Positions 16,210 through 55,108 are shown, numbered from the stretch's first letter. The stretch: 64,000 bases of DNA from Magnetovibrio sp. (GCA_002709525.1 PARE01000027.1:9403-73402); one strand, 5' to 3'. Translations and numbers: made by a program. The notes: generated from the letters alone by a model not told the origin.

Positions 16210-17211
16210 CTAGTCGGTCGGTCCACCCTTGACGAGAAGGAACAAAAGCATGCCGACGGCGCCACAGGCGCCAAGTATAGCGGCTTCGGGTAGCCCCCTT
16301 GCTGCCACGATTGACAACATAATTAAAAAGAGATTGGCGACACCAACGATCCAAGCCACCTGATCGTGGCGCAGCCCAGTGTCGACAGCCCGTTGATAAA
16401 AATGCTCACGATGAGCTTCCCATAACCGTTCGGCTTTGAGAATGCGCCTCAAAAGGGTCAACGTCGCATCAGCAAAAAAATACAGCGGCAGGATCAGCGC
16501 CGGTCCCCACGCTCCATTTGCCGCTAAAACCAGTAACATCCAACCTAACACAAATCCCAGAGGAATACTGCCTACATCACCAAGAAAGATCTTCGCGGGG
16601 TGCCAATTCCAACGTAGAAACCCAAGCGCCACGGCTCCAACGGAGAGGCTCAGCAACATGGACATTTCACCAAGCCCGAGCTTTCGTGCAATTACAAATA
16701 AGCCAATTGAGATCGCTAAGGTTTCAACCCCAACAATTCCATCAATCCCATCCATAAAGTTGAACAGATTGATAAACCATACCCACAAAACGCCGGCCAT
16801 AATAAGGTCGACTAGGGGCGGGAAAAGGCCGCCAAAGATAGGCCCTGGGAGAGGCACAAGGACCAACGCGATCGCCACTGCGATAGTGTGAACGGTGAGG
16901 CGCACAGCAGGGCCAAGGCCTTGGAGGTCATCCAACAATGACACACCGGCCAAAATCATTCCAATCGCAGAAATGGTTACAACCGGAACACCGAGCGGCC
17001 CCTCAATAACGCCAATCACAATCCAAACGGCAAAAAGCGCACCCACTACAGCAATCCCAGCACCCCTGGGGGTAGGTGCTTCGTGGCTTGAACGCGCATT
17101 CGGATGATCGAGGACCTGCTGAGCCATCAAATATCCGATGAGCAAACGTGTGCCAATCATCGAAACGAAAAACGCGACCAACGGCAAAATCAATGTGATC
17201 GGCCATTTCAT
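16210..17211 (-). CDS. polyprenyl-phosphate HexNAc-1-phosphate transferase (WecA/WbpL, MraY-like family)
   Basis: PNARSSHEAPTPRGAGI and FNFMDGIDGIVG motifs; polytopic. The ATG at 17211 (MKWPITLILPL) avoids overlap with manC. The ORF track extends to 17304. Confidence 0.85.
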   Translation of the reverse strand: MKWPITLILPLVAFFVSMIGTRLLIGYLMAQQVLDHPNARSSHEAPTPRGAGIAVVGALFAVWIVIGVIEGPLGVPVVTISAIGMILAGVSLLDDLQGLGPAVRLTVHTIAVAIALVLVPLPGPIFGGLFPPLVDLIMAGVLWVWFINLFNFMDGIDGIVGVETLAISIGLFVIARKLGLGEMSMLLSLSVGAVALGFLRWNWHPAKIFLGDVGSIPLGFVLGWMLLVLAANGAWGPALILPLYFFADATLTLLRRILKAERLWEAHREHFYQRAVDTGLRHDQVAWIVGVANLFLIMLSIVAARGLPEAAILGACGAVGMLLFLLVKGGPTD

Positions 17212-17269
17212 TGTGTAAAAATACCTTTGCTGATCAATAAAAGTTTGTGTTGCTCCAGATCTATCCAGA

Positions 17270-18688
17270 TCAATCGCGGCCGTACGTATCCTCGAGGCGG
17301 ACAATATCGTCCTCGGATATCATATTCCCAGTTTGAACTTCAACGATGCGCAACGGCTCATCCGATGGGTTTTCCAACCGATGCTTCGTGCCGATGGGAA
17401 TATAAGTGGATTGGTTGGCACTCATGTCGAACGTCTCTTCACCGTTCGTGACACGTGCGATACCTTCGACGACTACCCAATGCTCAGCCCGGTGATTATG
17501 GTACTGCATGCTGAGCTTACCGCCCGGCTTCACAAAAATCTGTTTGACCAAAAACCCGGCACCCGAGTCAACGTTCTGATAATATCCCCACGGGCGATAG
17601 ACCCTGGTATGCGAAATGATCTCCTCGCGGCTATGAGCCTCCAGTTCGGCAACAATCGATTTGACCTCCTGCGTGCGGGATCTAGGCATGGCCAGAACAG
17701 CATCATCTGTGGCGATCAAGGCCATGTCATCAATGCCCAAGACCGCCACCAGCGGCTTCTCCGAGCGAATGTAATTGTTTTTAGAATCAATGACCACGGT
17801 CCCACCGATACAGACATTCCCTTCATCATCCGTAGTACCTTGTTTAGCCAGGCTTTCCCAAGACCCAACATCACTCCAGCCCCCGTCCAACGGAACGACC
17901 GCGGATTGAGATGTCTTCTCCATAACCGCGTAATCGACAGAAATTGATGGCGCCATCTCGAACGCTTGTTTGTTTAGGCGGAGGAAATCCGCGTCCGAGG
18001 CAGCTTGGGCAATAGCCTGCTCTGCCGCGAACAATACATCAGGCGAGTGCTGACGGAGCTGATTTATAAAAGTTCGCGCGCGAAACAAAAAAATACCAGC
18101 GTTCCAATAGTACTCTCTGCTGGCTACATATGCCTCGGCTGTTGCCTGGTCAGGCTTTTCCACAAATTTAGCAACGCGTTGGCCTTCGCCATGGACTCTC
18201 CCCCGGCGAATATACCCATATCCGGTCTCCGGGTATTCGGGTTCAATGCCAAAAATTACGAGCAGCTCCTCCATTGCCAAACGCGCGGCAATCCGGGTCG
18301 CAGACCTAAACGCCGCGAAATCGGAAATCATATGATCTGATGGCAGGACGAAAATTAGACCGTCCGGGTCATCGGCGAGGACATGGAGCGCGGCTGTAGC
18401 AATCGCCGGAGCGGTATTCCGTGCCACTGGCTCAATGATGATCCCTCGGGCGCTCACCCCGGCCTCGTTCAACTCTTCAGCGACAAGAAATCGATGGTTG
18501 TGGTTGCACATAACAATTGGCGCCAGAAAATCATCAGCTTTGACACGTTCAAGCGTCGCACGAAACAGGCTGGATCCATCCTCCATTAACGGCAAAAATT
18601 GCTTAGGGCGAAGTCGGCGTGACATGGGCCACAACCGGGTTCCAGCGCCACCAGAAAGGATCACTGGCACAACCGAAGTTAGCATCAA
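17270..18688 (-). CDS. manC: mannose-1-phosphate guanylyltransferase / mannose-6-phosphate isomerase (type II PMI)
   Basis: PVILSGGAGTRLWPMSR at the N-terminus, and a C-terminal cupin with SMQYHNHRAEHWVVVEGIARV ... ENPSDEPLRIVEVQ. Confidence 0.92.
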   Translation of the reverse strand: MMLTSVVPVILSGGAGTRLWPMSRRLRPKQFLPLMEDGSSLFRATLERVKADDFLAPIVMCNHNHRFLVAEELNEAGVSARGIIIEPVARNTAPAIATAALHVLADDPDGLIFVLPSDHMISDFAAFRSATRIAARLAMEELLVIFGIEPEYPETGYGYIRRGRVHGEGQRVAKFVEKPDQATAEAYVASREYYWNAGIFLFRARTFINQLRQHSPDVLFAAEQAIAQAASDADFLRLNKQAFEMAPSISVDYAVMEKTSQSAVVPLDGGWSDVGSWESLAKQGTTDDEGNVCIGGTVVIDSKNNYIRSEKPLVAVLGIDDMALIATDDAVLAMPRSRTQEVKSIVAELEAHSREEIISHTRVYRPWGYYQNVDSGAGFLVKQIFVKPGGKLSMQYHNHRAEHWVVVEGIARVTNGEETFDMSANQSTYIPIGTKHRLENPSDEPLRIVEVQTGNMISEDDIVRLEDTYGRD

Positions 18689-27214: not shown

Positions 27215-27335
27215 GAATCTTGTTGATCAGCGGCATCACGAACCCTTGAAATTGTCTCAAATAAAGCACGAGCACGCCGATAACCCAAATCCAGGCAAGA
27301 ACTGCCCAAAAATTGCTTTTTGGCTCTTGGATCAC
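27204..27335 (-). CDS. hypothetical 43-aa single-pass membrane peptide (not in the ORF track as such)
   Basis: GTG at 27335-27333 overlaps the TGA stop (27334-27332) of the upstream membrane protein (GTGA). It reads (M)IQEPKSNFWAVLAWIWVIGVLVLYLRQFQGFVMPLINKILGN and stops at 27204, 8 nt before the alternative ATG (27193) of the CE4 gene. It fills an otherwise unexplained 117-nt gap. Confidence 0.3.
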   Translation of the reverse strand: MIQEPKSNFWAVLAWIWVIGVLVLYLRQFQGFVMPLINKILGN

Positions 27336-28969
27336 GAGCGGATAAATCCACGAAACCAGCCCAACATGGGCGGAACCGCAAAAAAGAAAATCCAGAAGCA
27401 CACGAGCTGCGGCAAAAAACTGCCGGTCATGACCGTGAAATTCGACTCATGATAAAACAATGGGAACAGTAAACCACCACTAATCGCAACGCCCGTAATT
27501 TTGCTGCGCGGCGCATTTATTATACAATCCAGAAAACCGAGGAAGAGGCCGGCCAGGAACATACCAATTAAAATCCCGACCTTTCCGAAATTAGCATACA
27601 TCTCGGTAATCCACGGCATGTTCACCGACATTGAAGTCTGGTGGGGCAGCAAAATGCCATATCGCCGCCCAAACTCATTCCCCCAACGCTCCTCCGGTTT
27701 TTCCAACCACACGAGCCTGGGCACCCAACCGATGAACAAGGTGCGATAGGTTTCGCCTTGCCAGAAAGGAATATTTTTCGGCGTCTGCTCAACCACGTGA
27801 CTAAGGGTTAAAATTGCAGAAATCCGACGGACCAAGCGCACATGATCGAGGTCGATGTTCATTGGGTCACGAAACATATTGCTCACCCGATTGCCTAGAA
27901 TCCCAACAAAGCCCAATAGCTTTTCCGATGTCGAGGCTCCTCCATGGAGTTCGTTCAAGATCCAGAACTTCTGGCGCTCCAATTCAATGCTCTCCGGGTC
28001 ATTTTCGCCAAGGATATCCTGTTTGACGCGAATCTCTTCAAGTCTAATCTTCAGCGCCGCGCGATCTAAATCGGCGGGAAGAAATGTCGCCGGTTCGGTA
28101 TTTGCAGATCGCCAGTAGTGGGTTCGATAAGTGCTGAGGGATGGATAGATGATGGTCATCGCGACAACTCCCAGGATTGCTATCCTCCACGGTATCTTTC
28201 CGAGATAATGAAACCTCAGCACCAACCAGACCAAAACAATGAAAATGACAGGTGTCATCAAGCCGATTGAGATCAGGGTCGCCATCCACAGAGGCAAAGA
28301 CCCAAGAAAATAGAACGCCGCAATCCAGGTGGACAGCCGCCCCTTTATCCAGAGAATATAAAACAGCGCAAAAGCAACAACGCCTGCCGGCTGCAAAAAC
28401 TGTCCGATCGACGGCAATGAACGAACCGCGGGGGACAGCCAATAAAAATTGACGCACAGCGCCAAAAGCAAAACCGCGAGGATCAAATCCAAATCACTTC
28501 CCGGCGCTTGCTCGGGGAAAGAAATTTTCAATCGTTTCCCCAGTTTCCGCACCGCCAGCCAAGCCATGAGCATCAGCGCAAGGCCCACCAAAACCAGCAT
28601 TTGTGCTTCGATATTGACCGTTTCAACATAGGTGTTTCTGTAGAACTCGATTCTTTGAACATCGGCGCTTGGGCCACTAGCCCCCCTCAGGCTAAAGGCA
28701 AAAAACGCTGGCACACCAAAAAACACCGCATAGAATAACCCGGTCATTGGCATCAACGGGATTGCCGGTCGCAAAGCTCTAGGCCGCATAACATAGAGGA
28801 TCCCCGGCGCCAAACCCAGCCAAACAATTGCAAGGGCTAGAAGCGCGCGATCAAGCGTGAGCATTTCGGAACGGAAAATCACGCAAAGGCAACTCGCGAC
28901 GATGCAGACGACAAAACCAACCTGCACGGGAACCGACAGTTTCGCCGTATTGAGTACTTGCATGTTCAT
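27332..28969 (-). CDS. polytopic membrane protein, O-antigen polymerase (Wzy)-like candidate
   Basis: 545 aa with about 12 or more hydrophobic segments and a large loop (residues around 290-400). No named motif recognised. The call rests on topology and context. Confidence 0.4.
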   Translation of the reverse strand: MNMQVLNTAKLSVPVQVGFVVCIVASCLCVIFRSEMLTLDRALLALAIVWLGLAPGILYVMRPRALRPAIPLMPMTGLFYAVFFGVPAFFAFSLRGASGPSADVQRIEFYRNTYVETVNIEAQMLVLVGLALMLMAWLAVRKLGKRLKISFPEQAPGSDLDLILAVLLLALCVNFYWLSPAVRSLPSIGQFLQPAGVVAFALFYILWIKGRLSTWIAAFYFLGSLPLWMATLISIGLMTPVIFIVLVWLVLRFHYLGKIPWRIAILGVVAMTIIYPSLSTYRTHYWRSANTEPATFLPADLDRAALKIRLEEIRVKQDILGENDPESIELERQKFWILNELHGGASTSEKLLGFVGILGNRVSNMFRDPMNIDLDHVRLVRRISAILTLSHVVEQTPKNIPFWQGETYRTLFIGWVPRLVWLEKPEERWGNEFGRRYGILLPHQTSMSVNMPWITEMYANFGKVGILIGMFLAGLFLGFLDCIINAPRSKITGVAISGGLLFPLFYHESNFTVMTGSFLPQLVCFWIFFFAVPPMLGWFRGFIRS

Positions 28970-39932: not shown

Positions 39933-39991
39933 GCTGTCCGTATTCTGTAATGGCGCCTAACACAGCACTAAGCATTCGCTTAAGAATCGGA

Positions 39992-41854
39992 TCAAATCTC
40001 CGATTGGAGCGCCACATAACGACGATAGGTTTCATTGGTCAGCAACAATTCCGCATGGGTCCCCTGATTGGCGACCGTTCCAGCTTCGACGACAATAATC
40101 TTATCAGCGCTGACTATGGTCGACAGACGGTGGGCAACCACGAACAGCATCTTTTCTTTAGATATGTCCTCGAGCGCGCGTTGAATGGCGGCTTCGGACT
40201 CACTGTCGAGGGCACTGGTCGCTTCGTCGAGGATCAAAATCGACGGGTCGCGGACGATGGCTCGCGCCAATGCCACACGCTGGCGTTGCCCTGCCGAAAT
40301 CTGAGCCCCACGGCTGCCGAGAGCCGTGTCATAGCCTTCCGGCATAGCGGTGATGAAATCATGGGCATGCGCGGTACGGGCCGCTGCAATCACCTCATCG
40401 TCCGACGCCGTGAGCTTCCCGTAACGGATATTGGCGGCGACAGATCCTTCGAATACATGCGGATCCTGGGGAACAACCGCAATTTGACGACGCCACGCTG
40501 GCCCTGGAATTTCCGCAAGGTCCCTACCATCCACCATTATCCGACCACGAACCGGCACATGGTGGCCGATGAGCAGATCGATAATTGTCGACTTTCCGGC
40601 GCCCGATTCACCAACCAAGGCAAACGTCCCCGTGCCGCGAAACATGAGATTGATATCCGTTAGCGCCGGTTTTCCCACCACGTAGTCGAAGCCAACCTCC
40701 TCAAAGGAGATTTTCAAAATCTTACGCTTCTCCGCATCAGTCCTGACGCTGGATTGTTGATCTTCAGAATCGGAAAGATCAAACAGTTCCTGCAATTTGC
40801 CGACGTGCGGCAGCATGCTAAGAATCTGCAGCCAGCTGCTGCTCGCCGTCTTTGCGCGCGGAACCATGCGCACCAGGACGACGAAGAACGCCATCAAAAA
40901 CGACAGTGGAATGTCCACCCAGGCGATCGAGTAGGCGATCAAGCCGATTGCCAAAAGGGTGACCAGCGGCTCAACATAGAAGTCTGCGACAAGTCTGTTG
41001 ACCTGGATCTGAACAGCGATTCGCCGAAACGCGTCGGTCAAGCCACGGAACTCCCGGAGGTGCAAATCGGCATTGTCGAATTCACGAACAGTCTTGAACC
41101 CTGTCAGCTTGTCAACGACGTACGAATAAATGCGGTCGATCGCTGCCTTCTCATCCGCGCCTTGGCGATATCCGATCCTAAACCGAGAGGCCAATAAGAT
41201 CCCGCTGATCGCAATCATCCCACCAGCTGCCAACGATAAGTCAAAGGAGATTGCCAAGGCCATAAATAGATACAAGAAGCAAAAAACAATAGATATCAGG
41301 AAAATCGAAAGCTGCTCATAAATGGCGCCGGCCCCCTCTGCCGACGTGAACACTGTTGCCGTCAAATCACCAACCCGGGTGCGGTGAAACTGAGATAGGG
41401 GAACATGCATGGATGCTGAAAACGCCTGGTTCCGGAAATCGCGCGAGGCCGTCGCACCCAATTGCCGTCCAACGTATCCCTGCAAAGCCTGGGCGACGTA
41501 CTTTATCAGCATCAGGGTCGCCAGTGCCGCCAATAAATAATAGATGCTAAACGGTATCCCAACTAAGGCGAACAGATGGGTCAAGACCTCGGAAATTGCG
41601 CTTGGCGCCGCATTGTCTTGGAGCTGTTCGAAAACAGGAATGATGAGACCTATGCCGATCCCCTCTGTGATCCCGCCAATCAGAATGAGACCAAAATTGG
41701 CGGCGAAAAGCGCCTTGTAACGCCCCAGGTAACGGACAGAAATCCGCGCGTCACGCAAGTAGCCTTTCCCAAAACGCCGCTGATGCTTGCCATTCTGCCC
41801 TTTCACGGATGGATCTAAGGGCAAGATGAAATCAGTTTTCGTAAGCGCAATCAA
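39992..41854 (-). CDS. fused TMD-NBD ABC exporter (MsbA/PglK/Wzk-like)
   Basis: 620 aa. Six N-terminal TM segments, Walker A GESGAGKST, signature LSAGQRQRVALARA and Walker B ILILDEATSALD. TTG start overlaps the rSAM stop (TTGA). Confidence 0.9.
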   Translation of the reverse strand: MIALTKTDFILPLDPSVKGQNGKHQRRFGKGYLRDARISVRYLGRYKALFAANFGLILIGGITEGIGIGLIIPVFEQLQDNAAPSAISEVLTHLFALVGIPFSIYYLLAALATLMLIKYVAQALQGYVGRQLGATASRDFRNQAFSASMHVPLSQFHRTRVGDLTATVFTSAEGAGAIYEQLSIFLISIVFCFLYLFMALAISFDLSLAAGGMIAISGILLASRFRIGYRQGADEKAAIDRIYSYVVDKLTGFKTVREFDNADLHLREFRGLTDAFRRIAVQIQVNRLVADFYVEPLVTLLAIGLIAYSIAWVDIPLSFLMAFFVVLVRMVPRAKTASSSWLQILSMLPHVGKLQELFDLSDSEDQQSSVRTDAEKRKILKISFEEVGFDYVVGKPALTDINLMFRGTGTFALVGESGAGKSTIIDLLIGHHVPVRGRIMVDGRDLAEIPGPAWRRQIAVVPQDPHVFEGSVAANIRYGKLTASDDEVIAAARTAHAHDFITAMPEGYDTALGSRGAQISAGQRQRVALARAIVRDPSILILDEATSALDSESEAAIQRALEDISKEKMLFVVAHRLSTIVSADKIIVVEAGTVANQGTHAELLLTNETYRRYVALQSEI

Positions 41855-43359
41855 TTGGTCCCAGAGACAATCGAAAACTCATTTTCCACTGTGGACCGTA
41901 CATTGGTCTTGCTCAAGTCCATGGCAGGGAACCTATAGGATGCCAAATCCTCTGGACTTAACTTTCCTCTATTCTCAGCCAGGAACTGTTTTTGCTGCTT
42001 AAGGAAATACAAGCGCTGGTCGTCGGGGTCGTAAAGATCGTGCGCCATTTGATAGAAACGCTCAGAATACACGATGCCGGCTGCGTCGATATGGTAATAG
42101 TCATTCGTCCGCAGAAGCGTTTCATAGTCCTCGCTTTTGGGAAGCCCCAGATAGGCAAATCGATCGCAGGCCGTCGGCTTGATTTCATCGATGAAAGCGT
42201 TGGTGAACGCGATTTCCTCATCGGTTTCGCCCGGCGTGCCCATGCAGAACGTCGTATAGGTTGGCAGCTTAATATCGTGGGCGTGCTTGAAAAAGGTCCG
42301 TATCGTGTCCAAATCGAGGTCTTTCTTCTTCCGCGACAACGCGCTATCCGACCCCGCCTCAACGCCAAGATACAATCCTGTGCAACCGGATTTGCGCATT
42401 TTTTCCAGGAGGTTCCGATCTGTAATGTCAGCGCGCGCTTCACAAGCCCACGCGATATTATAATTGCGACGGATCAGAAGATCGCATACCTCTTCCAAGC
42501 GCTTATGGTTCGCGGTAAACAGGTCCTCGCGGAAATAGATACCCTTGCAGCCATATTTCTCGATGAGGCGGCCAATCTCATCGACGATACCTTCCGCTGA
42601 AAATTTGGTATATCGGCGCGACCAAATAGAGGCAACTCCACAGAACGTGCAACGGTAAGGACAAGACCGACTAGTATGCATTGTAAACACGGGATAGGCA
42701 TCCACGTCGTAAAGATCCAGCTTCCAGTTGTAGTCCTTGCCCCAAAACTTATCGTAATCAGGGAACGGTAATTCATCCAGATTTTTGATCCGACCGGTGA
42801 CAGCGTTGTCGATCTGACGCGGAAGCTTCGTGCCTCGGCACAGTTCAGCCATCACGTATTCGCCTTCGCCCTGAACCACAAAATCGACCTTTTCGGGGAT
42901 GGTCTCCGGCATCAAGGACGCTTGGGGGCCACCAGCCGCCAACGGAGCGCCAGTCAGGTTCTTTATTTCGTCGATCAAGGACAAGGCCTCATAATAACCC
43001 GGCGAATGAATATACATCCCGACGAAATCTGGCTTGAAGTCATCGATTTCCTTCGCCATGTCCTGGGGATCGAGATAGTTGTCAACAATTGTGGTCTCAA
43101 CTCCATTCTGTTCCAGAAATGTTGATATATACCCAAGCCCCAACGGCGGGCGAAGGTCACCATAGTGCAACGCCGTGGTTCCCGGCCCAGGGCGTTTGGC
43201 GGTTGTGAGCATGACGCGCCGATATTTAAGATCCCCAGTCTTCGTGTTCAGCATCGGGCCTTGCGAATGCAGTTTCGCAATTGCTTTTTCCGTTCGTTGA
43301 GCAGATGTGCTTTTCATCGTCGCGTTCCTAAATTCATAAATCGCCGTTCCCAACGGCAC
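41851..43359 (-). CDS. B12-binding-domain radical SAM enzyme (class B rSAM)
   Basis: An N-terminal B12-binding-like domain (PPLGLGYISTFLEQNGVETTIVD) followed by SRSCPYRCTFCG (CxxxCxxC). The likely start is the ATG at 43317 (MKSTSAQ). Confidence 0.85.
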   Translation of the reverse strand: MPLGTAIYEFRNATMKSTSAQRTEKAIAKLHSQGPMLNTKTGDLKYRRVMLTTAKRPGPGTTALHYGDLRPPLGLGYISTFLEQNGVETTIVDNYLDPQDMAKEIDDFKPDFVGMYIHSPGYYEALSLIDEIKNLTGAPLAAGGPQASLMPETIPEKVDFVVQGEGEYVMAELCRGTKLPRQIDNAVTGRIKNLDELPFPDYDKFWGKDYNWKLDLYDVDAYPVFTMHTSRSCPYRCTFCGVASIWSRRYTKFSAEGIVDEIGRLIEKYGCKGIYFREDLFTANHKRLEEVCDLLIRRNYNIAWACEARADITDRNLLEKMRKSGCTGLYLGVEAGSDSALSRKKKDLDLDTIRTFFKHAHDIKLPTYTTFCMGTPGETDEEIAFTNAFIDEIKPTACDRFAYLGLPKSEDYETLLRTNDYYHIDAAGIVYSERFYQMAHDLYDPDDQRLYFLKQQKQFLAENRGKLSPEDLASYRFPAMDLSKTNVRSTVENEFSIVSGTN

Positions 43360-43468: not shown

Positions 43469-44608
43469 TTAGTCATTAACGGGTTCTGCGGAAAGCATTT
43501 CGACGCTTATCGCCTGATCCGGCTCAATATCGGCAATGGCGAACTTTCCAACAACTGAGCTCATCATGGATCCAGGTAGGCCATCGGCGGGCCGTTTCAT
43601 ACCAAGCATGACGCTCTCGATACGTTCGCCCTTAGCAATCGCCTGATCAGCAACGATGCTACGTCGGGCACTATCGCGAGCCGCCTGTTCTGCTTCAATC
43701 ACTTCGATCCGAGCATCGCCCAGAACAACCTCGGCAATGCGGATGTTTTCAATCATATCCGTCAAATTCTGGGGGTTCACCGAAAAGAAGTGGCCCGATC
43801 CCGTCATCGTGCGGTCGAGCGTGTAGTGCTTCTCAATAAGGTGGGCACCAAGTGCGACTGCGAGAGCCGGGATCACCATGTGATCGTCAGGCTCCGTATG
43901 ATCAGAGAGCCCGATCACCATCCAGGGATAGCGCTCCTTCAGAGCTGAGACGCGCCGCAGATTGGCCGCGGGATTTGGCGTTGGATAACTGAGCGTGCAA
44001 GCTAGCAGGATGATATCAAAGTTTCCTGCGTCATAAAGAACGTCAATCGCAGCGTCGATCTCTTCGGTCGTAGAGCCGCCCGTAGACAGGACAATCGGCT
44101 TACCCTTCTCGGCCACATGCTTCAGCAAACGGTGATCGGGCAGATCGCACGATGCAATCTTAAACAATGGCATACCAAGATCGTTGAGCATGTCAGCGTT
44201 GTCGGTATCAAACGGGGTGGAAAACGGCAAGATACCTTTCGCGTTCGCGTCGGCGAAGATAGTCCGATATTCATCGGCACCCAGGCGATCAAGGCGCGAG
44301 TAATACTCGAGTTGGGATGTTTCCTTGCCATTCCAATAAAGGGTTGCGTTAGCTCTAACCAACTTTTCGGCCTTGTAGGTCTGAAACTTGATCGCTGATG
44401 CGCCAGCCTTAACAGCGTGATCCGTCATCTTGATCGCCGTTTCTACATCGCACATGTGATTACACGCAGCTTCCGCGACGACGTACGTATTCTCACCGTC
44501 GCCAACCATCGTTCCGTTCACATTGACTAAGCGCTTACCATCATGGCGCGCCAACATCTTGTTGATTTGTGTTTCAAATTTGTCGAAGAGTGTGTCCGCC
44601 ATTTTCAA
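43469..44608 (-). CDS. NeuB-family nonulosonic acid synthase (NeuB/PseI/LegI-like, with SAF domain)
   Basis: YVVAEAACNHMCDVETAIKMTDHAVKAGASAIKFQTY, IGLSDHT and the C-terminal SAF-like segment IAKGERIESVMLGMKRP. Confidence 0.8.
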   Translation of the reverse strand: MKMADTLFDKFETQINKMLARHDGKRLVNVNGTMVGDGENTYVVAEAACNHMCDVETAIKMTDHAVKAGASAIKFQTYKAEKLVRANATLYWNGKETSQLEYYSRLDRLGADEYRTIFADANAKGILPFSTPFDTDNADMLNDLGMPLFKIASCDLPDHRLLKHVAEKGKPIVLSTGGSTTEEIDAAIDVLYDAGNFDIILLACTLSYPTPNPAANLRRVSALKERYPWMVIGLSDHTEPDDHMVIPALAVALGAHLIEKHYTLDRTMTGSGHFFSVNPQNLTDMIENIRIAEVVLGDARIEVIEAEQAARDSARRSIVADQAIAKGERIESVMLGMKRPADGLPGSMMSSVVGKFAIADIEPDQAISVEMLSAEPVND

Positions 44609-45574: not shown

Positions 45575-45602
45575 GAAACAACCTGCCTCCTGATTGTTCC
45601 CC

Positions 45603-46403: not shown

Positions 46404-47765
46404 TTACCGCCCAAGAAAGTCTTCAAGCAAATTCTCAGCGAGCCAGAATTCAAACTCTGAATTTATCTTTACACTCTCTTCCGGCAGCATGGTGAGATGG
46501 CCAACTGTCTCACCGATCAAGCTGCCGCCGCGCACAACGTTCGTTCGGGCGAGGTGGACGGCACTATTGTCCTTATAGATTGCTTCTTTCTCTAAACGAA
46601 CACCGGTTGCGAAATCGATTGGTCGCAGTCCATTTCGGTCGTGCTGATAACACGGCGATAGTTCCTCAGAGACAGAAATTACGGAATCGACATCAAAAAT
46701 CTGCATGACGTTGACCGCCCGGTCGATATGTTGGGCACGTCGCAGCGGTGAATTGATGTTAAGAACGCAAATAGCATCAGGAATATAGTTTTGTTCGTGC
46801 TCCATAGTGTCCAGGACATGCCCAATTGAGTCGCAAATATTCACAATTTCAATTTCAGGCGGCCGCTCAATGACCTCGATGTTTTCGTGCTTTTCTGCCT
46901 GCGCAATGGCATCAGGGTGACTAGTCGACATGACAATCCTATCTAGCAGGTCTGATCGGAGCGCTTCGTTCAGCGTGTAAGAGATCAGTGCCTGTCCTGC
47001 CAAGACAGCGTTGGGTTCATTCTTTGGATAGGGAGAGTTTCGCGCAACCGGAATGATCCCCAAAACCTGTGGCGTATGGCCAGTAAGCTCGCGTTCCGAA
47101 AAATTCTTTTGTATCTCGTAACGCGTCTCCAGCAATCGCTTGGCGTTGGTGGTGATACTGCCGTGGTGCTGACGATAATAAAAGAGCGGCACATTGACGT
47201 TGTACGGCCGAAAATTTTGAATAAAGCGGATCCACAAATCATAACCGTCCTGACAATTATACTCCTCGCTATAGCCATCCAATTGTATCAGGACTTCACG
47301 TCGGAACATCGTGCAGGCACCATGAGCCGGTAAGTCAAGAAGCTCAACTTCATCCCCGATCTTCTTGCGCCGGATCAATTCGAGAATATTCGCGTTGTCG
47401 TCGATGAGAAAGTAATCAGGATATACTAAGCCAACATCGTTCCGGGTATCGAGAATATTGGAGAGGACAAGCAAAGCGTTCTCATCAAGATAGTCATCGG
47501 CGTCGAGACGCATAACATATTTTCCGCCGGCTAAGCGTAACGCAATGTTGTTGGATGCATTTAGCCCCTTGTTTTCTTGGCGTACGATTTTAATTTTAGA
47601 GTGAGAGGCATACTTCTCAAGAACATCACCTGTGTGGTCGGTAGAGCCATCATCGATCACGATCAGTTCCCAGTCATTCATGGTCTGACTGATGACGCTT
47701 TCAATCGCACGATCAAGATAGTTGCCGTAGTTATAGCACGGTGAATACACAGTCACTTTTGTCAT
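46404..47765 (-). CDS. fusion protein: N-terminal GT2 glycosyltransferase + C-terminal CMP-ulosonic-acid (NeuA-like) cytidylyltransferase domain
   Basis: N-terminus: VTVYSPCYNYGNYLDRAIESV, ELIVIDDGSTDHT and RLDADDYL. From about residue 235: LGIIPVARNSPYPKNEP..AGQALISYTLNEA, which resembles IIPARxxSKxxPxKN of CTP_transf_3 but is divergent. Confidence 0.6.
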   Translation of the reverse strand: MTKVTVYSPCYNYGNYLDRAIESVISQTMNDWELIVIDDGSTDHTGDVLEKYASHSKIKIVRQENKGLNASNNIALRLAGGKYVMRLDADDYLDENALLVLSNILDTRNDVGLVYPDYFLIDDNANILELIRRKKIGDEVELLDLPAHGACTMFRREVLIQLDGYSEEYNCQDGYDLWIRFIQNFRPYNVNVPLFYYRQHHGSITTNAKRLLETRYEIQKNFSERELTGHTPQVLGIIPVARNSPYPKNEPNAVLAGQALISYTLNEALRSDLLDRIVMSTSHPDAIAQAEKHENIEVIERPPEIEIVNICDSIGHVLDTMEHEQNYIPDAICVLNINSPLRRAQHIDRAVNVMQIFDVDSVISVSEELSPCYQHDRNGLRPIDFATGVRLEKEAIYKDNSAVHLARTNVVRGGSLIGETVGHLTMLPEESVKINSEFEFWLAENLLEDFLGR

Positions 47766-48846: not shown

Positions 48847-50178
48847 TCAGGCTTCCTTTGAAAGACGTTCCTGATTATCTGCAACCTTATGCACGGCCTC
48901 CACAAATTCCTTAACTTCTCTCGCGCCGTTTGGAAACTTACATATGTCGGTAGTAACCAGTTCAAGATCGTACAGCCGCTCTGCGGTCGGACAGAGTCCG
49001 GCGGCATAGTCGGGCTCTCCCGTGTAATGGGGGCAGCGAAACGGACAACCCGTATCACCGTAGGCGATCTGGTTCTGATACATGGGATACCTGTAGATAG
49101 GTATCTCGTAGCCGGGGGAAATGGCCACGCCTTCGGCCTGCATGGCACGCACGAAAACATCCCGGTGGTATCCGGCCTCTTCTGGGAGGAACCGCATAGT
49201 AAAGAAGTAGTATGAATGGCTACAGTTCTGGCGTACGAACGGTGGTATCAAAAATTTGTAAGGTTGAAGCGCGGCCGTAAGGCTGTTTGCCAGATCTCTT
49301 CGAACCTCGAGCAACTTGTCTAGTTTTTCAATCTGGCTCATGCCGATAGCAGCTTCAATCTCGGTCATCCGGTAGTTCCAGCCCACGATGTTCTCGAGAT
49401 CGGGCAGATCATCATCAGTCCATTTTGCGAGGACCACCTCACCGTGATTCCGGATCAACTGCATCCGCTGTGCATATTTATCATTATTGGTGACGGCAAC
49501 CCCCCCCTCCCCGGTTTGGATGGCTTTGTGATAGTTCAGGCTCAAGACCCCAATGTCGCCGATCGTCCCAGCAAATTTGCCATTGATAGCGGCCCCCGGG
49601 GATTGTGCATTATCCTCAATCAGCGCCAGCTCATGCTCGCTGGAAATCTCTTTCAACGCTTCCAGCCGAGCCGGGTGACCAAACAGATTGACGACAATAA
49701 TAGCCTTGGTGCGCGGCGTGATCTTCTTCTCAACCTCGTTCGGGTCAAGGCAGAACGTCTCGTCCTCGATATCGGCAAACACGGGAACAGCATTAGCCAT
49801 GACCACGCAAGTAGCGCTGGCCGACATGGACGTCGGCGGAACGATCACTTCATCGCCTGGCCCCACGCCAACAGCTGCGACAGCACTGTGAAGGGCTGAG
49901 GTGGCGGAATTGAATGAAACGGCATGCGTCGTGCCAAAGTACGTCCGGAACCCGTCCTCCAGCCTTCGTACATTAGGGCCACCCAAAAATCGATCGCCTG
50001 GCCGGCCGGAAAATCCGGAAAGCTCCTTTCGGCGCAATGTGGCAATGACCGCCTCTTCCTCTTCCCGCCCAATCATGGTGTCATGAGTGGGGTAGGGAAT
50101 ATCCCTAACACGCGGTCCCCCATACATCGCAAGCTCCGTCATTATCGACCCTTTCTTGTCAGTTCCGAAACCGACCAC
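48847..50178 (-). CDS. DegT/DnrJ/EryC1/StrS-family PLP sugar aminotransferase
   Basis: GDEVIVPPTSMSASA, LIEDNAQSPGA and SLNYHKAIQTGEGGVAV (PLP lysine). An alternative ATG start lies at 50142. Confidence 0.85.
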   Translation of the reverse strand: MVGFGTDKKGSIMTELAMYGGPRVRDIPYPTHDTMIGREEEEAVIATLRRKELSGFSGRPGDRFLGGPNVRRLEDGFRTYFGTTHAVSFNSATSALHSAVAAVGVGPGDEVIVPPTSMSASATCVVMANAVPVFADIEDETFCLDPNEVEKKITPRTKAIIVVNLFGHPARLEALKEISSEHELALIEDNAQSPGAAINGKFAGTIGDIGVLSLNYHKAIQTGEGGVAVTNNDKYAQRMQLIRNHGEVVLAKWTDDDLPDLENIVGWNYRMTEIEAAIGMSQIEKLDKLLEVRRDLANSLTAALQPYKFLIPPFVRQNCSHSYYFFTMRFLPEEAGYHRDVFVRAMQAEGVAISPGYEIPIYRYPMYQNQIAYGDTGCPFRCPHYTGEPDYAAGLCPTAERLYDLELVTTDICKFPNGAREVKEFVEAVHKVADNQERLSKEA

Positions 50179-50239
50179 GCAACGGTCCTCGGAGATCTGT
50201 TGGAGATTTTAGTTGTTCTCATCGGGAAACCGGCGCGCA

Positions 50240-51376
50240 CTACTTAAAGCTGGCCGCAGGTCCTTTGCGCTGCGACTTCAATATTTCCTCAAACTCGTCT
50301 TCGCTAAACCCCGTGATCTCAAGATAATAGTCCAGCATATCAGGTCGCTTTGGATCATATTCCTTGATCAGCTCAAACGCCTCCTCCCGGGTCAGTAGCC
50401 CCGCACGGACATCTTGGCTGGCGTGATCCGTGGCGCGTCCAAACCCTCGCTTCAAGTACTTGGCGTAATCGTGGACACCCGGCATACGGCACTCAACACT
50501 TTTGTATCTCTTGTATGTACCTTCGACGTTGTCTTCTTCCCACCCGTACTCTTCCTTGAGAAACTCGGTTTGACGTTCACCATCCCAGAAAATGTATTCG
50601 CCAAGGAAAATTCCATGAAAGCCCATTGCATCCAATTGTTCCTGGAGAGGAACTCGAAACGGATACATATCGCGACGCTCGATGTTGTCGCATAGAAGAT
50701 CGTCGATCCGCGCCTTTGTCGAAACCCGATCGAAGTAGGAGCGGTCGAACTTGACCTCATCGCTGTAGGAATTCTTGTTCCCGGCTTCAGCCGACGACTC
50801 ACCCCAGACCATTAACGGAATGCCGTACATGACGGCCACCTGCAAAGGAAAGGCGTTCACTCCTGCGTGACAATGCCAGCACGAGTCGCCAATGGCATGG
50901 AGCGATTGTCGCGCAACCTTATTCACCAAACCACGGGCCGGTGTAAACATCAAATGGTCAACGCTCAGCTTATCAAGAATATTCCACAAGTTTCGCTTGC
51001 CGGTTGGGCTGTACCAGTTATGACTGAAGGTAACGGCAAGCGGCTTCATACCGTATTTCTTGACCAAGACGTGGAGCTGGAACGCGCTGTCTTTGCCGCC
51101 ACTGATAGGGACAATGCAATCATAGTTGTCGCCCGCCTTGGCCCTATAGTGTTCGAGCGTTTCGTGCAACAAGCGTTCACGCGCAGCCCAATCGATATGC
51201 ATCTTTTGCTCAGAACTTTGACAGGCCCGGCAAACGCCGAGTTCATCGTAGACCGTGCCCTCTGAGGTCTCCGGCATGCAGCAGCGGACGCAATATCTCA
51301 CATTTTCATGCGGGGGCTTCCCCCAATCCGATGATCTTTGCAGTGCTTCTTTCTTCGTCATGGTGAATCCATTCAT
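50240..51376 (-). CDS. N-acetyl sugar amidotransferase (WbpG/PseA/LfnA-like PP-loop enzyme)
   Basis: CVRCCMPETSEGTVYDELGVCRACQ (Zn ribbon) and YDCIVPISGGKDSAFQ (PP-loop SGGKDS). Confidence 0.8.
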   Translation of the reverse strand: MNGFTMTKKEALQRSSDWGKPPHENVRYCVRCCMPETSEGTVYDELGVCRACQSSEQKMHIDWAARERLLHETLEHYRAKAGDNYDCIVPISGGKDSAFQLHVLVKKYGMKPLAVTFSHNWYSPTGKRNLWNILDKLSVDHLMFTPARGLVNKVARQSLHAIGDSCWHCHAGVNAFPLQVAVMYGIPLMVWGESSAEAGNKNSYSDEVKFDRSYFDRVSTKARIDDLLCDNIERRDMYPFRVPLQEQLDAMGFHGIFLGEYIFWDGERQTEFLKEEYGWEEDNVEGTYKRYKSVECRMPGVHDYAKYLKRGFGRATDHASQDVRAGLLTREEAFELIKEYDPKRPDMLDYYLEITGFSEDEFEEILKSQRKGPAASFK

Positions 51377-51389
51377 CGCAGAGGTTCAT

Positions 51390-52751
51390 TCAGTCAAAGA
51401 TAGGTTCAACAACAGCGGCCGGCGCCACGGCGCCCTCATCTTCAAATTCGGCCAACAGATCTAGCAAATCCAGGTCGTGATACTTCGGTGCTATAATTTG
51501 AACGCCAAGAGGAAGTTTTTCAGGCCCAAAGCCAATTGGCAGATTAACACTCGGAACGCCACAGAAGGTCCATATAAGGCAATTGTCAGGACGATCCGGC
51601 GCATCGCGACCTTCCGGGGCTTCCCCAGCCGCAGCCAACGTGATCACAGCGTCATATTTAGAAAGCCAGGAATCCATTTCTTGGCTCAAGCGTGTTTGCG
51701 CCGCTAAACATTCGCGAAACTCATCCGCTGTTATACTCCGGCCCGCGTTTGTCATTTCGCGGAATGATCGACTAATTTTGTCGGGTTGCTCAATTTCGTG
51801 GGCAAAGTAATATGACAGAGATTTAGTGTAGATGATCTGGTGTATGTCAAAAATTTCACTAAACGCCGCCGGCAAATCATATTCGATACAGTCAATATTT
51901 GGCAATCCGCCAAGGACGTTGGCAAACGTATGCAGACTTTCTTGGGCATAGCTCTCCGCATCCGACCATTTGGGCCCCTTGACCATGGCAATCCGCTTTG
52001 CCGCATCGCGAGATTTCCGAGGCCGTTTGTCGACGCACTTGTGGATGAACGGATGATTAGCTCCGCTTACACGCGTGGCGTTGAGGGTGAGCTTTAGATC
52101 ACATACGGTTCGGGCGAAAAAGCTAACGTGATCGAGCGTATCAGCGGTCTTTAATACTCCGGTCCTGGGAACTAATCCAAAAGAGGGTTTCATGCCGTAG
52201 ACACCGAGATAACTTGCCGGTCGGATAGTTGATCCCGCGGTTTGAGTTCCCAGGCTGACTGGAACCATACCGGTCGCAACGGCGACGGCTGATGCCCCTG
52301 ATGATGTGCCCGCGGACAGGGTCTCACCGTAGGGATTTAGAGTTTCACCAGGATGATGAACGGCGAACTCGGCAGTGACGGTCTTGCCGGCTAAGCAGGC
52401 CCCCGCATACCGCATCATAAAAACAGCGCGTGCATCGTTGCCCGGAGAAAATCCTGACCAGAGCTCACTCCCCATTTCCGTGTTAAGCGTTTCAGTGTTA
52501 AAAATATCCTTTACGCCGAACAGGGCCCCTGCAAGCTGCGGGAACTCCCCCGTTTCACGGCGACGGGCCTCCAGATGATCAAACTGCTCTAACAAGAGAT
52601 CTGGTTCAAACGCCGCCCATGCCTTGAGTCTTGGCTCAATAACCTTGATCCGTTCGATACAGGACTCCGCGATTTCACGTGGGCTTGCCTTCCCAGAACG
52701 CACCGCCCGAATGGCATCCGTTGCACTGAGGTCATAGAGTTCAGGTTTCAA
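51390..52751 (-). CDS. amidase-signature (GatA-like) amidohydrolase
   Basis: FGVKDIF (catalytic Lys) and AGTSSGASAVAVATGMVPVSLGTQTAGSTIRPASYLGVYGMKPSFG, which is the AS signature with cis-Ser and the nucleophile Ser retained. Confidence 0.85.
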   Translation of the reverse strand: MKPELYDLSATDAIRAVRSGKASPREIAESCIERIKVIEPRLKAWAAFEPDLLLEQFDHLEARRRETGEFPQLAGALFGVKDIFNTETLNTEMGSELWSGFSPGNDARAVFMMRYAGACLAGKTVTAEFAVHHPGETLNPYGETLSAGTSSGASAVAVATGMVPVSLGTQTAGSTIRPASYLGVYGMKPSFGLVPRTGVLKTADTLDHVSFFARTVCDLKLTLNATRVSGANHPFIHKCVDKRPRKSRDAAKRIAMVKGPKWSDAESYAQESLHTFANVLGGLPNIDCIEYDLPAAFSEIFDIHQIIYTKSLSYYFAHEIEQPDKISRSFREMTNAGRSITADEFRECLAAQTRLSQEMDSWLSKYDAVITLAAAGEAPEGRDAPDRPDNCLIWTFCGVPSVNLPIGFGPEKLPLGVQIIAPKYHDLDLLDLLAEFEDEGAVAPAAVVEPIFD

Positions 52752-52811
52752 ATTATCTGTATTCCAACTATTAATTGTCTAGCAGAAGCCTTGCCAGTGC
52801 CTTTGGTTCAA

Positions 52812-53801
52812 TCAGCCTGCGATTTGGTCGCAGATTTCGACAACACGACAGCCATCTTCAAGCGTGCAAGCCGGCGGCTCACCGGCATCCCGTTGCGCCA
52901 CAAGCTCACGGACGGCGGTCGGCAAACAGAATTGCCACGACGTTTCTTTCGTTTGCGACCCACCAAGAATGTGAAAGCTGCCAAATTTCGGCTCCGGGAC
53001 CCCTATTTCAGTCTGAACAATTTGACCGCGCTGGCGCAACGAAACCCGGCCATTCCGAAAGAAAATCTCAACGTCGAGAAACACGTAGGAAGCATCGGGC
53101 AAATGGTGAAAGTCAACAGCTAGGCCATTAGCAAACGTCAGGGCAAAGTCGTAACCGGGGTCGTCTGTATCTGCGCGCCCATGGCGGCGGAACGTTCGGA
53201 CTGATTGAGGTTCGCCGAAGAACCACCGGAACAAATCAATGAAATGCGATCCATTGACCCAAAGGCCCTTAGTATAACGGACACAGGCTGCAATCGGATG
53301 TCCCCATCGGCCGCTATCGATGTCTTCGCGTAGGTTTCGAATGCTATTATTCCAACGTCGATAATAATTAACGGCAACTTGCCGGCCCTCGGCTTGCGCA
53401 ACCATGCGCCTCGCTTCATCCCGGTTTTGGGAAATCGGCTTCTCTACAAAGATTGTCTCAATGCCAACATCCAACGCCGCCGCCAAAACTTGGCTGTGGG
53501 TGTTCGTCGGCGTACAAATGCTGGCAATGTCGATCGACTCTGCGCCAAACATCTCTTGGTAGTCGCGATATGTTGATGGGACCCCCCACTTTTGCTTGAA
53601 GTCCTCAAGATTTTGCACGTTCACGTCGGCAACCGCCGCCAGTACCGTTTCAGGGTGCAGCAGATAGGCGCCGGCATGGGTCATCGATCCCTGCGCGTCT
53701 TCGTTCCGCGCTGGCGGCACTCGATCATATCCACCACCAATGTTTCCACAGCCGACAATCGCCGCTCGCAAAGATGTCTCCCCTAACATGATGGGCGTCA
53801 C
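52812..53801 (-). CDS. Gfo/Idh/MocA-family oxidoreductase
   Basis: RAAIVGCGNIGGGY and FVEKPIS (EKP motif). GTG at 53801 overlaps the upstream stop (GTGA). An alternative ATG lies at 53789. Confidence 0.8.
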   Translation of the reverse strand: MTPIMLGETSLRAAIVGCGNIGGGYDRVPPARNEDAQGSMTHAGAYLLHPETVLAAVADVNVQNLEDFKQKWGVPSTYRDYQEMFGAESIDIASICTPTNTHSQVLAAALDVGIETIFVEKPISQNRDEARRMVAQAEGRQVAVNYYRRWNNSIRNLREDIDSGRWGHPIAACVRYTKGLWVNGSHFIDLFRWFFGEPQSVRTFRRHGRADTDDPGYDFALTFANGLAVDFHHLPDASYVFLDVEIFFRNGRVSLRQRGQIVQTEIGVPEPKFGSFHILGGSQTKETSWQFCLPTAVRELVAQRDAGEPPACTLEDGCRVVEICDQIAG

Positions 53802-54550
53802 TCCGCCCCCAGCAGGCTCAGAAGATTGGGTTTCTGTTCAAGGTACGCCATCAATTCCGGCAGGCTGAAGTCAGGCTTATCCGGATAAAGACCGGAAATT
53901 ATTTGCTCCAGGAACTGAAAATTCTTCAGGTAATTGACCGCGAAATTAATCTCGGGCCTGTGCAGTTTCTGCCAATGGCCCGTCGCCTCTATGAACCCTG
54001 TTTTGAAGCCGTTCTCTGGGACAAATAGAAACTCAGCTTCCGGAATATCGTCGCGAATATAGTCCGGAAAATCTATATAGCGTTCTGCTGCCTCAAGCTT
54101 GAATGCCTGAACCCGCACCCCCAGGGCAAACAGAGCTAGGTCCTCACGCTTCACATTATATTCGTCGGTAATCGACACAGCGCAGTCGAAATCATTTCTC
54201 GTCTGTAGTTCGACGACCTCATCAATCATTTCTGGATCCACGAGGGGATTGTCCCCAAGGATTTCCACGACCGTATCACAATCATAGGCCCGAGCTGCAC
54301 CACATAAGCGTGCCATGATATCTTGCAAAGGCCCGCGGTAACATCCGACGTCGGCGTTGGCCGCCCACTCGGCCAAGGGGTCATCGCTTCTCTCATCACT
54401 GGTCGTTACGACAATCTCATCGATACTTCTCGCGCGCCGAATGCGTTCCACCAGGTAATCAATCATTGGTCGGCCATTAATCGGCATGATGTTTTTGGCC
54501 GGCAATCGAGAAGAACTCAATCGAGCAATGATGAACGCGCCGGTGGTCAT
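53798..54550 (-). CDS. cytidylyltransferase, SpsF/COG1861-like (CMP-nonulosonic acid synthetase candidate)
   Basis: AFIIARLSSSRLPAKNIMPINGRPMIDYLVERI, IVVTTSDERSDDPL and CYRGPLQDIMAR. Confidence 0.7.
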   Translation of the reverse strand: MTTGAFIIARLSSSRLPAKNIMPINGRPMIDYLVERIRRARSIDEIVVTTSDERSDDPLAEWAANADVGCYRGPLQDIMARLCGAARAYDCDTVVEILGDNPLVDPEMIDEVVELQTRNDFDCAVSITDEYNVKREDLALFALGVRVQAFKLEAAERYIDFPDYIRDDIPEAEFLFVPENGFKTGFIEATGHWQKLHRPEINFAVNYLKNFQFLEQIISGLYPDKPDFSLPELMAYLEQKPNLLSLLGAE

Positions 54551-55108
54551 TTAGGCCTGCCCCCTGAATGTTGCCATGTAAACCAAATCAACCTCCTTTC
54601 CCTCCCACATGTATTCGCGCCGGCGCACACCGTCGCTGATCATTCCGGAATTCTTCATGATCTTTAACATGCCGGCATTCGTCGCCATGGTGCCTGCCCA
54701 TACTTTCCTCAGACCGACCTCATCCAAAAGAAATGTCATCCCCCCGTTCCAGGCTTCCAGCCCATATCCATGCCCCCAAAGATCCTCCTCGCCAAGCATG
54801 ATAGTGAGATTAGCGGTGGAATTCGGACGGTCTACATAGGCCACCATGTTTCCGAAATGCCGATAGCTGTCATCTTGCAACTCTAACGCCCAGAAAAAGC
54901 TATCCGATCCTACGAAAGTCTTGAGAAATGCTTCGCAGCTCGCGCGATCATGACTGCGGCTCCGGTGCTTGCTAAAGCGAGTGACGCTGGGGTCATTTAG
55001 CCAACCGATATAGGTGTCCGTGATGTGGTTCGCGGTAAACGGAACTAACTGAAGTCGCGACGTTAAAATATGCCGTTGCGACAAACGTTCGATATCTGGT
55101 TCTGCCAT
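54551..55108 (-). CDS. GNAT N-acetyltransferase (RimJ/RimL / PseH-like)
   Basis: RLQLVPFTANHITDTYIGWLNDPSVTRFS and WGHGYGLEAWNG..FLLDEVGLRKVWAGT. Confidence 0.75.
   Translation of the reverse strand: MAEPDIERLSQRHILTSRLQLVPFTANHITDTYIGWLNDPSVTRFSKHRSRSHDRASCEAFLKTFVGSDSFFWALELQDDSYRHFGNMVAYVDRPNSTANLTIMLGEEDLWGHGYGLEAWNGGMTFLLDEVGLRKVWAGTMATNAGMLKIMKNSGMISDGVRRREYMWEGKEVDLVYMATFRGQA

Follow-up and report, generated by a model that had tools for sequence, protein, structure and literature searches.

A surface-glycan operon of Magnetovibrio sp. (GCA_002709525.1) carries, side by side, a gene for a B12-binding radical S-adenosylmethionine (SAM) enzyme and a gene for an ATP-binding cassette (ABC) exporter. 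Do these two genes form one functional unit, and what does the radical SAM protein do in such an operon? The stretch analysed here, referred to as the window, is 64,000 nucleotides long and covers positions 9403-73402 of contig C27 (PARE01000027.1; 78,936 bp), which belongs to a metagenome-assembled genome (MAG) of 81.75% completeness. Both genes are encoded on the minus strand, within about 40 co-directional glycan genes that run from roughly 64,000 down to 12,011. The two genes and their junction are the following.

41851..43359, minus strand: class-B-type radical SAM gene (PF02310 and PF04055, CxxxCxxC)
39992..41854, or with its start at 41806, minus strand: B-family (type IV) ABC half-transporter, HepA/MsbA-like, from domains and motifs
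41851..41854, minus strand: TTGA, in which the radical SAM stop overlaps the upstream candidate start of the ABC gene (plus-strand 'tcaa')

We consider it likely that the radical SAM protein is a tailoring enzyme of nonulosonic acid (NulO) synthesis and that the ABC protein serves the same surface-glycan cluster separately, as an accessory component. The two genes would then be neighbours in one long minus-strand operon while serving different functional modules.

The radical SAM gene and its NeuB neighbour

A homolog search grouped the radical SAM protein closely with about 30 cluster representatives of 47-70% identity, all from metagenomes or MAGs; beyond this group identity is 44% at most. 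Scans of genome and metagenome contigs gave 11 orthologous loci (L001, L002 and L011-L019; 47-68% identity), against which every protein of the window was compared by tblastn. Pairwise identities divide these loci into about eight lineages at no more than 87% identity, and they are thus not repeated sampling of one population. In all 11 loci a NeuB-family synthase adjoins the radical SAM gene on the same strand; in L014 and L016 it is downstream, in the other nine upstream. Besides these two genes, the longer loci encode orthologs of the DegT aminotransferase, a 350-aa protein, the GFO/IDH/MocA oxidoreductase (GFO), a CTP_transf_3 cytidylyltransferase, a formyltransferase, a CE4 deacetylase and a fusion of a family 2 glycosyltransferase (GT2) with a cytidylyltransferase. 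DegT, GFO and the cytidylyltransferase are kept near the radical SAM gene in L002, L015, L017 and L018.

The ABC gene, in contrast, adjoins the radical SAM gene in none of the 11 loci. The tblastn comparison gave no match to it in L002, L015, L016 and L018 (18-21 kb each), and it is present in L017 only (39% identity), with a GT2-cytidylyltransferase gene between it and the radical SAM gene. The co-location that is conserved is that of the radical SAM gene with the NeuB-family synthase and further enzymes of the NulO pathway. The sequence-only reading had treated the radical SAM and ABC genes as a unit; the orthologous loci do not support this, and the meaningful unit is NeuB together with the radical SAM gene, inside a nonulosonic acid module. 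Phylum-wide genome searches gave no ortholog of the radical SAM gene, only three distant matches of about 210-220 bits. The membrane proteins encoded beside it in L012 and L018 were tested for likeness to Wzx or Wzy and had none.

The longest open reading frame (ORF) of the radical SAM gene begins with GTG 43359 and encodes 502 amino acids at most. The probable start is ATG 43317, which has AGGAA 8 nt upstream and gives the 488-aa form found as a database entry (P0003). The B12-binding domain PF02310 covers residues 70-173 (61.8 bits against a cut-off of 32.1) and the Radical_SAM domain PF04055 residues 229-384 (72.9 bits). C219, C223 and C226 (P0003 numbering) form the CxxxCxxC motif and are invariant in an alignment of 18 orthologs, as is a GG(P) motif at 129-131 in the N-terminal domain. 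The AlphaFold2 model of the protein has a pLDDT of 87. The predicted protein is therefore placed in the radical SAM superfamily, with class-B architecture by its N-terminal B12-binding domain, as had been read from the DNA at the outset.

The wider family was examined in a search of 1.84 billion representatives. The ortholog group appeared there as one representative at 56% identity, and no glycosyltransferase (GT)-fused ortholog of the window protein was found among them. The next tier, at 37-42% identity, consists mostly of very long proteins (812-3088 aa). All seven of these that were scanned for domains join the B12 and radical SAM unit to between two and four GT2 domains; a GT1-type domain is added in three of the seven, and a class I methyltransferase domain in one. 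This GT-fused tier (P0230-P0257) includes a 3088-aa 'glycosyltransferase' of Candidatus Kuenenia (P0242, WP_347272951.1), and one source labels a long fusion of this kind 'O-antigen biosynthesis protein'. Several other long proteins of the tier, P0233 and P0246 among them, have five to seven radical SAM-like matched stretches. Standalone relatives, at 40-43% identity, are encoded among genes for GDP-mannose dehydratase, epimerase, DegT, GT1 and GT2 proteins.

A quick maximum-likelihood tree was calculated, with SH-aLRT support. The NeuB-linked orthologs lie on one side of a branch, supported at 87 when all 18 are counted and at 100 for a 17-row core without P0035. The adjoining clade has 28 rows (support 95), and its 17-row core (support 99) includes 16 of the 17 GT-fused rows. 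Judged by its domains and gene neighbours, the entire family is devoted to glycans, with the clade of the window protein as its NulO-specific branch. The comparison also exposes a large uncharacterised clade in which the same radical SAM domain is fused to glycosyltransferases. In the proposed check by subfamily classification the glycan setting held up, through the GT-fused sister clade and the sugar-gene neighbours of the standalone relatives, and no curated subfamily or methylase family was reached.

The module upstream of the radical SAM gene is organized as follows.

43469..44608, minus strand: NeuB-family nonulosonic acid synthase (PF03102, 242 bits), the conserved neighbour of the radical SAM gene
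44654-45727, minus strand: CE4 deacetylase, from a domain match; conserved with the radical SAM module
45603-46403, minus strand: formyltransferase, from a domain match; conserved with the radical SAM module
46404..47765, minus strand: GT2-cytidylyltransferase fusion, 38-53% identity in L002 and L015-L018
47789..48841, minus strand: 350-aa GT-B-fold protein, UDP-GlcNAc 2-epimerase-like by structure search; conserved in 6 loci
48847..55108, minus strand: rest of the NulO module, with DegT aminotransferase, WbuX amidotransferase, amidase, GFO/IDH/MocA oxidoreductase, CTP_transf_3 cytidylyltransferase and GNAT

The NeuB-family synthase scores 298 and 255 bits against the NeuB and PseI equivalogs, and DegT (48847-50178) 237 and 207 bits against PseC and LegC. 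Both proteins are well below the equivalog cut-offs, and the sugar made by the module is therefore probably not standard Neu5Ac, pseudaminic acid (Pse) or legionaminic acid (Leg). The 350-aa protein has no Pfam or NCBIfam match. A structure search of the Atlas aligned it at TM-scores of 0.74-0.79 to clusters that are named UDP-GlcNAc 2-epimerase-like or contain Epimerase_2 (PF02350), and from the modelled fold it likely performs the LegG/NeuC/PseG-type step. If so, the canonical NulO pathway is complete without the radical SAM protein, which would then be an added tailoring step.

In the window the formyltransferase and CE4 deacetylase ORFs share 125 nt, which they read in different frames. 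In two Acidobacteria-type loci, L015 (11476-13170) and L018 (8634-10328), the two proteins are one ORF of 564 aa. The arrangement in the window may be a natural split, a wrong start of the deacetylase or an assembly frameshift. In Kuenenia, a deacetylase and a formyltransferase tailor the sugar once it is activated with cytidine monophosphate (CMP) (bioRxiv 10.64898/2026.04.20.719630), and the pair in the window fits tailoring at that level.

Reaction of the radical SAM protein

Our suggestion is that a CMP-nonulosonic acid pathway of legionaminic or pseudaminic type employs the radical SAM protein as a dedicated tailoring enzyme. Its partners would be the divergent NeuB, DegT, the GT-B hydrolase/epimerase-like protein, the cytidylyltransferase, GFO, the formyltransferase and the deacetylase. 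In brief, a [4Fe-4S] cluster and SAM would generate a 5'-deoxyadenosyl radical, and this radical would remove hydrogen from an unactivated carbon of the nine-carbon acid, of a 6-deoxy-hexosamine precursor or of an N-acyl group. Most likely, methylcobalamin bound by the N-terminal domain would then supply a methyl group, and the product would be a C-methylated ulosonic acid, formally C10 or branched. The main alternative to methyl transfer would be dehydration/deoxygenation, epimerisation or rearrangement. Whichever applies, the product is most likely an undescribed modified sugar.

C-methylation of a sugar is the reaction that we tentatively favour, short of calling it probable; a non-methylating radical reaction, AprD4-like or other, seems less likely. 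Cobalamin use we infer mainly from the N-terminal domain. A profile built from the orthologs matched OxsB over both of its domains and the B12 domain of TsrM with an E-value of 6e-9. The MAG also encodes CobS, which we count in favour of cobalamin use.

Several observations weigh against methylation. Among solved structures the closest, whether by fold or by sequence over the radical SAM core, is that of AprD4, an enzyme that neither binds cobalamin nor methylates (PMC12931638). The MAG (82% complete) was searched for a cobalamin riboswitch and for a MetH activation domain, and neither was found. The radical SAM protein also reaches no characterised radical SAM subfamily in NCBIfam. All 23 matches to curated B12-binding radical SAM equivalogs (ApyD, ladderane, HpnJ, PhpK, BchE, HpnR, TIGR04295 and others) are far under their cut-offs, the highest being ApyD at 135.6 bits (cut-off 750), followed by ladderane at 135, HpnJ at 119, PhpK at 116 and BchE at 100.

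These observations lead to the rival that survives best, namely that the protein is a cobalamin-independent dehydratase or deoxygenase like AprD4, or another non-methylating enzyme, and that GFO reduces the resulting keto intermediate to leave an extra deoxy position on the NulO. AprD4 (6fd2) is the top solved match of the ortholog profile (E-value 1e-28, radical SAM core only), and in the fold comparison with the AlphaFold2 model it comes first (TM-scores 0.67/0.72 over the full length), ahead of TsrM, MgmA, OxsB, CysS, MiaB and TokK. It is similar in size and its substrate is an amino sugar, while GFO is conserved in the module and would be a possible reductase partner. According to a 2026 review, AprD4 lies within the similarity network of B12-binding radical SAM enzymes and yet has no cobalamin binding (PMC12931638), so that a class-B label is no proof of cobalamin use or methylation; the missing riboswitch suits such an enzyme as well. 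On the other hand, the AprD4 family model NF033070 gives 86.6 bits, over the radical SAM core only, against a full-length cut-off of 500. The N-terminal domain matches true B12 domains (PF02310, TsrM and OxsB, as above), no match to the N-terminal domain of AprD4 was reported from the ortholog profile, and CobS is encoded in the genome. We consider this rival reading unlikely on balance.

Returning to C-methylation, a more specific form of it can be proposed. CMP-activated ulosonic acids with a C10 backbone marker have been reported, from mass spectrometry, in Magnetospirillum gryphiswaldense, and no radical SAM enzyme or methyltransferase has been proposed for them in that report (bioRxiv 10.64898/2026.04.20.719630). 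They provide a concrete, testable product for the methylation hypothesis. The literature searched contains no link between radical SAM enzymes and the synthesis of nonulosonic, pseudaminic or legionaminic acid. We speculate that the NeuB-linked radical SAM clade adds a carbon to the NulO, before or after its activation with CMP, by C-methylation of the backbone or side chain, and that this is the origin of the C10-marker acids of Magnetospirillum; in this full form the proposal is doubtful. If true, marine bacteria such as the source of the window display higher-carbon ulosonic acids on their surface, and the GT-fused sister clade would run the same chemistry directly on growing glycans.

The ABC exporter and the flippase question

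The ABC gene encodes an ABC_membrane domain (PF00664) with six hydrophobic segments and an ABC_tran domain (PF00005) with intact Walker A, signature, Walker B and H-loop motifs. The translation thus has the architecture of a type IV (B-family) exporter, and its original identification as a half-transporter is confirmed. The protein has two recorded lengths: 620 aa, from TTG 41854, for the 78,936-bp contig, and 604 aa, from GTG 41806, for other assemblies. The alignment of the L017 ortholog begins only at residue 34, which leaves the start codon unsettled.

Of 186 families compared, the heterocyst envelope polysaccharide exporter HepA (NF045513) scored best, at 361.5 bits and end to end, under its cut-off of 725. 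A family related to MsbA gave 321 bits, likewise short of its cut-off. PglK (NF050066) gave 199.3 bits against a cut-off of 1000, which rules out membership of that family; the PglK likeness at first seen in the protein does not extend to its sequence. For MsbA itself (TIGR02203; cut-off 602) the ABC protein, at 309.6-309.7 bits, ranks fifth in the genome. The gene at C28:43067-44773 scores 589.6 bits on the same model, and the ABC protein of the window is therefore not the housekeeping lipid A flippase; nor is it a generic MsbA. In 400 other genomes of the same phylum there was no match at E<=1e-90.

The cluster contains further genes for the assembly of a lipid-linked glycan.

16210..17304, minus strand: WecA/MraY-family initiating transferase (Glycos_transf_4), from its domain and membrane topology
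27332..28969, minus strand: Wzy-like membrane protein with 11 predicted transmembrane segments, from weak Wzy-family matches
2943..4226, plus strand: membrane protein with an O-antigen ligase domain (Wzy_C), from its domain and membrane topology

The WecA/MraY-family transferase implies an undecaprenyl-linked glycan, and together with the Wzy-like and ligase-like proteins it implies that a flippase is needed, for which the ABC protein is the sole local candidate. Neither PF01943 (Polysacc_synt, Wzx) nor PF01061 (ABC2_membrane, Wzm) has a match across the whole of C27 (78.9 kb), and the ATPase domain ABC_tran is found there only in the ABC gene of the window, so that there is no Wzt. The earlier statements that Wzx and Wzm/Wzt are absent and that the ABC protein is the only exporter candidate hence apply to the entire contig and not just to the window.

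We suggest that the ABC protein is an accessory half-transporter of HepA/MsbA type, which would move the lipid-linked glycan or the finished polymer across the inner membrane. It may well be a functional analogue of PglK and Wzk for the lipid-linked glycan of this cluster, an assignment that we put forward with some hesitation. Three points count against it. Two Wzx-like genes are present elsewhere in the genome and the cluster runs past the end of C27, so that the absence of Wzx is valid for C27 and not for this glycan. One of the two, C49:6839-8260 (L032), encodes a protein with 12 transmembrane segments (Polysacc_synt, 94.9 bits) that could act in trans on the C27 glycan; this gene is flanked by tauD and the nuo operon, with no glycan cluster around it; the other is at the end of C57, beside a gene for an AsnB-like amidotransferase. 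Furthermore, the ortholog of the ABC gene is known from one locus, which is too few for a conserved association with glycan genes, and the cargo is not readable from the sequence.

A rival reading makes the ABC protein a drug, lipid or peptide efflux pump unconnected with the glycan, which would be flipped by one of the Wzx-like proteins encoded elsewhere. The two Wzx-like genes, the generic B-family architecture and the incomplete MAG are compatible with this, and in a search of 5.8 billion proteins only full-length relatives of 28-35% identity, several of them cyanobacterial, were found besides the L017 ortholog (39%). The ABC gene is nevertheless co-directional within the roughly 40 glycan genes, its protein is nearest to the HepA polysaccharide-export family, and the genome has its separate, much better MsbA. 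The L017 ortholog occupies the same module junction: in both L017:12759-15934 and window 35809-41854 the ABC gene lies where the NulO module meets an HpcH-aldolase/cytidylyltransferase cassette. It may be part of that cassette and not of the NulO module. We regard an unrelated pump as rather unlikely.

Improbable, in our judgement, is a coupled functional pair in which the radical SAM protein acts at the membrane on the lipid-linked glycan, whose modified form the ABC protein then flips. The two genes are on the same strand with a 4-nt overlap or a gap of at most 44 nt, and no terminator-like signal above the shuffled background lies between them; their co-transcription is likely. Both genes are also within 1.5 kb of each other in L017, and the GT-fused relatives suggest that the radical SAM family can act near glycan assembly. 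The translational coupling that was proposed from the TTGA has fared less well: the tetranucleotide is in the sequence at 41851-41854, but the 4-nt overlap requires the uncertain start at TTG 41854, and with GTG 41806, which replaces it in other gene calls, there is a 44-nt gap and no overlap. Coupling at the level of translation is possible. In L017 the longest ORF of the ABC gene overlaps the stop of a different upstream gene by the same 4 nt, and the tight packing therefore looks like ordinary operon style. The orthologous loci, where the ABC gene is never the neighbour of the radical SAM gene and is absent from L002, L015, L016 and L018, weigh further against such a pair.

A cassette for a ribosomally synthesised and post-translationally modified peptide within the glycan operon, with an ApyD-like maturase, an ABC peptide exporter and perhaps a 15-codon mini-ORF upstream, has in its favour that mini-ORF, ApyD as the top NCBIfam name and NHLP bacteriocin exporters among the ABC matches, and we reject it as very improbable on synteny and scores, since ApyD does no better than HpnJ, PhpK and ladderane, the ABC protein has no peptidase domain, the radical SAM orthologs are always beside NeuB and sugar genes and never beside an ABC gene, and GC and GC3 (GC at third codon positions) are uniform across the operon.

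The even GC and GC3 along the glycan operon also rule out a recent insertion into it. Promoter and terminator scans gave nothing exceeding background. Two genes lie 3' of the ABC gene, both identified from domain and family matches.

38931-39932, minus strand: SAM methyltransferase
37304-38950, minus strand: TIGR04326-like surface-carbohydrate protein

Farther upstream on the minus strand, at 58855-60606 and 60736-62532, are two tandem genes for transferases of the LIC12162 family (TIGR04331; 304 and 306 bits, above the cut-off of 225). The name of this family derives from a Leptospira O-antigen gene, and the two proteins are candidate transferases for the acidic sugars of the cluster.

The glycan cluster extends to the end of C27, where an acyl-CoA-ligase-like gene, a second, unrelated B12-binding radical SAM gene and a further cytidylyltransferase gene are located. 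The second radical SAM protein (C27:75893-77908, which is L030:2894-4909; minus strand, 671 aa) lies beyond the window and shares just 23% identity with the first. Its best family is that of the KedN5-type methylcobalamin C-methyltransferases, at 179.6 bits and below the cut-off. It is flanked by the acyl-CoA-ligase-like gene and a KdsB/PseF-like cytidylyltransferase gene (neighbours at C27:74053-75564 and C27:78012-78806).

Comparison with known systems

GenK and GenD1 are cobalamin-dependent radical SAM sugar C-methyltransferases of aminoglycoside pathways, and Fom3 is likewise a class B enzyme. The radical SAM protein of the window resembles them in having an N-terminal B12-binding Rossmann domain and a CxxxCxxC core, and in being encoded within a sugar pathway; their targets are unactivated carbons in amino sugars or in small polar substrates. 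It differs in that it has no sequence-level membership of these subfamilies and is found in a surface-glycan and NulO setting, not in an antibiotic cluster.

AprD4, the radical SAM 1,2-diol dehydratase of apramycin biosynthesis, shares its length and three-domain layout with the window protein at 19% identity. The two differ in that AprD4 has no cobalamin (PMC12931638), whereas the N-terminal domain of the window protein matches genuine B12 domains. TsrM, MgmA, OxsB, CysS and TokK resemble it in overall fold (Foldseek E-values 1e-13 to 1e-19). Their identity to it is 15-20%, most of them are 100-250 residues longer, and their substrates are tryptophan, protein glutamine, nucleoside and carrier-linked small molecules.

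The ABC protein shares its half-transporter architecture with HepA and MsbA, and the HepA model, its best-scoring one, matches it end to end. HepA also works in a polysaccharide context. The scores are 361 bits against 725 for HepA and 310 against 602 for MsbA, and the source is not a cyanobacterium. With PglK of C. jejuni and Wzk of H. pylori it would share a role, that of an ABC half-transporter taking the place of Wzx where a cluster encodes a WecA-type transferase and a ligase-like protein; the resemblance is one of hypothesised function, not of family membership. The PglK and Wzk systems use no Wzy, whereas the cluster in the window has a Wzy-like protein. The ABC protein is the finding of lesser weight, being at best another MsbA-like pump that would replace Wzx.

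The module around the radical SAM gene is closest to the Leg, Pse and Sps pathways, with which it shares a NeuB-type synthase, DegT, GNAT, a GT-B hydrolase/epimerase-like protein, a cytidylyltransferase and an acetamidino (WbuX) module. The pair of deacetylase and formyltransferase recalls the Leg-type cluster of Kuenenia (bioRxiv 10.64898/2026.04.20.719630). It differs from all of these in its radical SAM enzyme, since none occurs in the described pathways in the literature searched, and the pairing of NeuB with a radical SAM protein is not described there either. To our knowledge, conventional two-electron steps account for all the known biosynthetic routes to NulO, and to these routes a radical SAM enzyme that constantly accompanies the synthase would bring a new type of reaction, either C-methylation or radical deoxygenation of a nine-carbon sugar. 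Nonulosonic acids, such as sialic, legionaminic and pseudaminic acid, shape how bacteria are recognised by hosts, phages and grazers. For the unexplained C10 ulosonic acids among them, the radical SAM gene described here is a concrete candidate.

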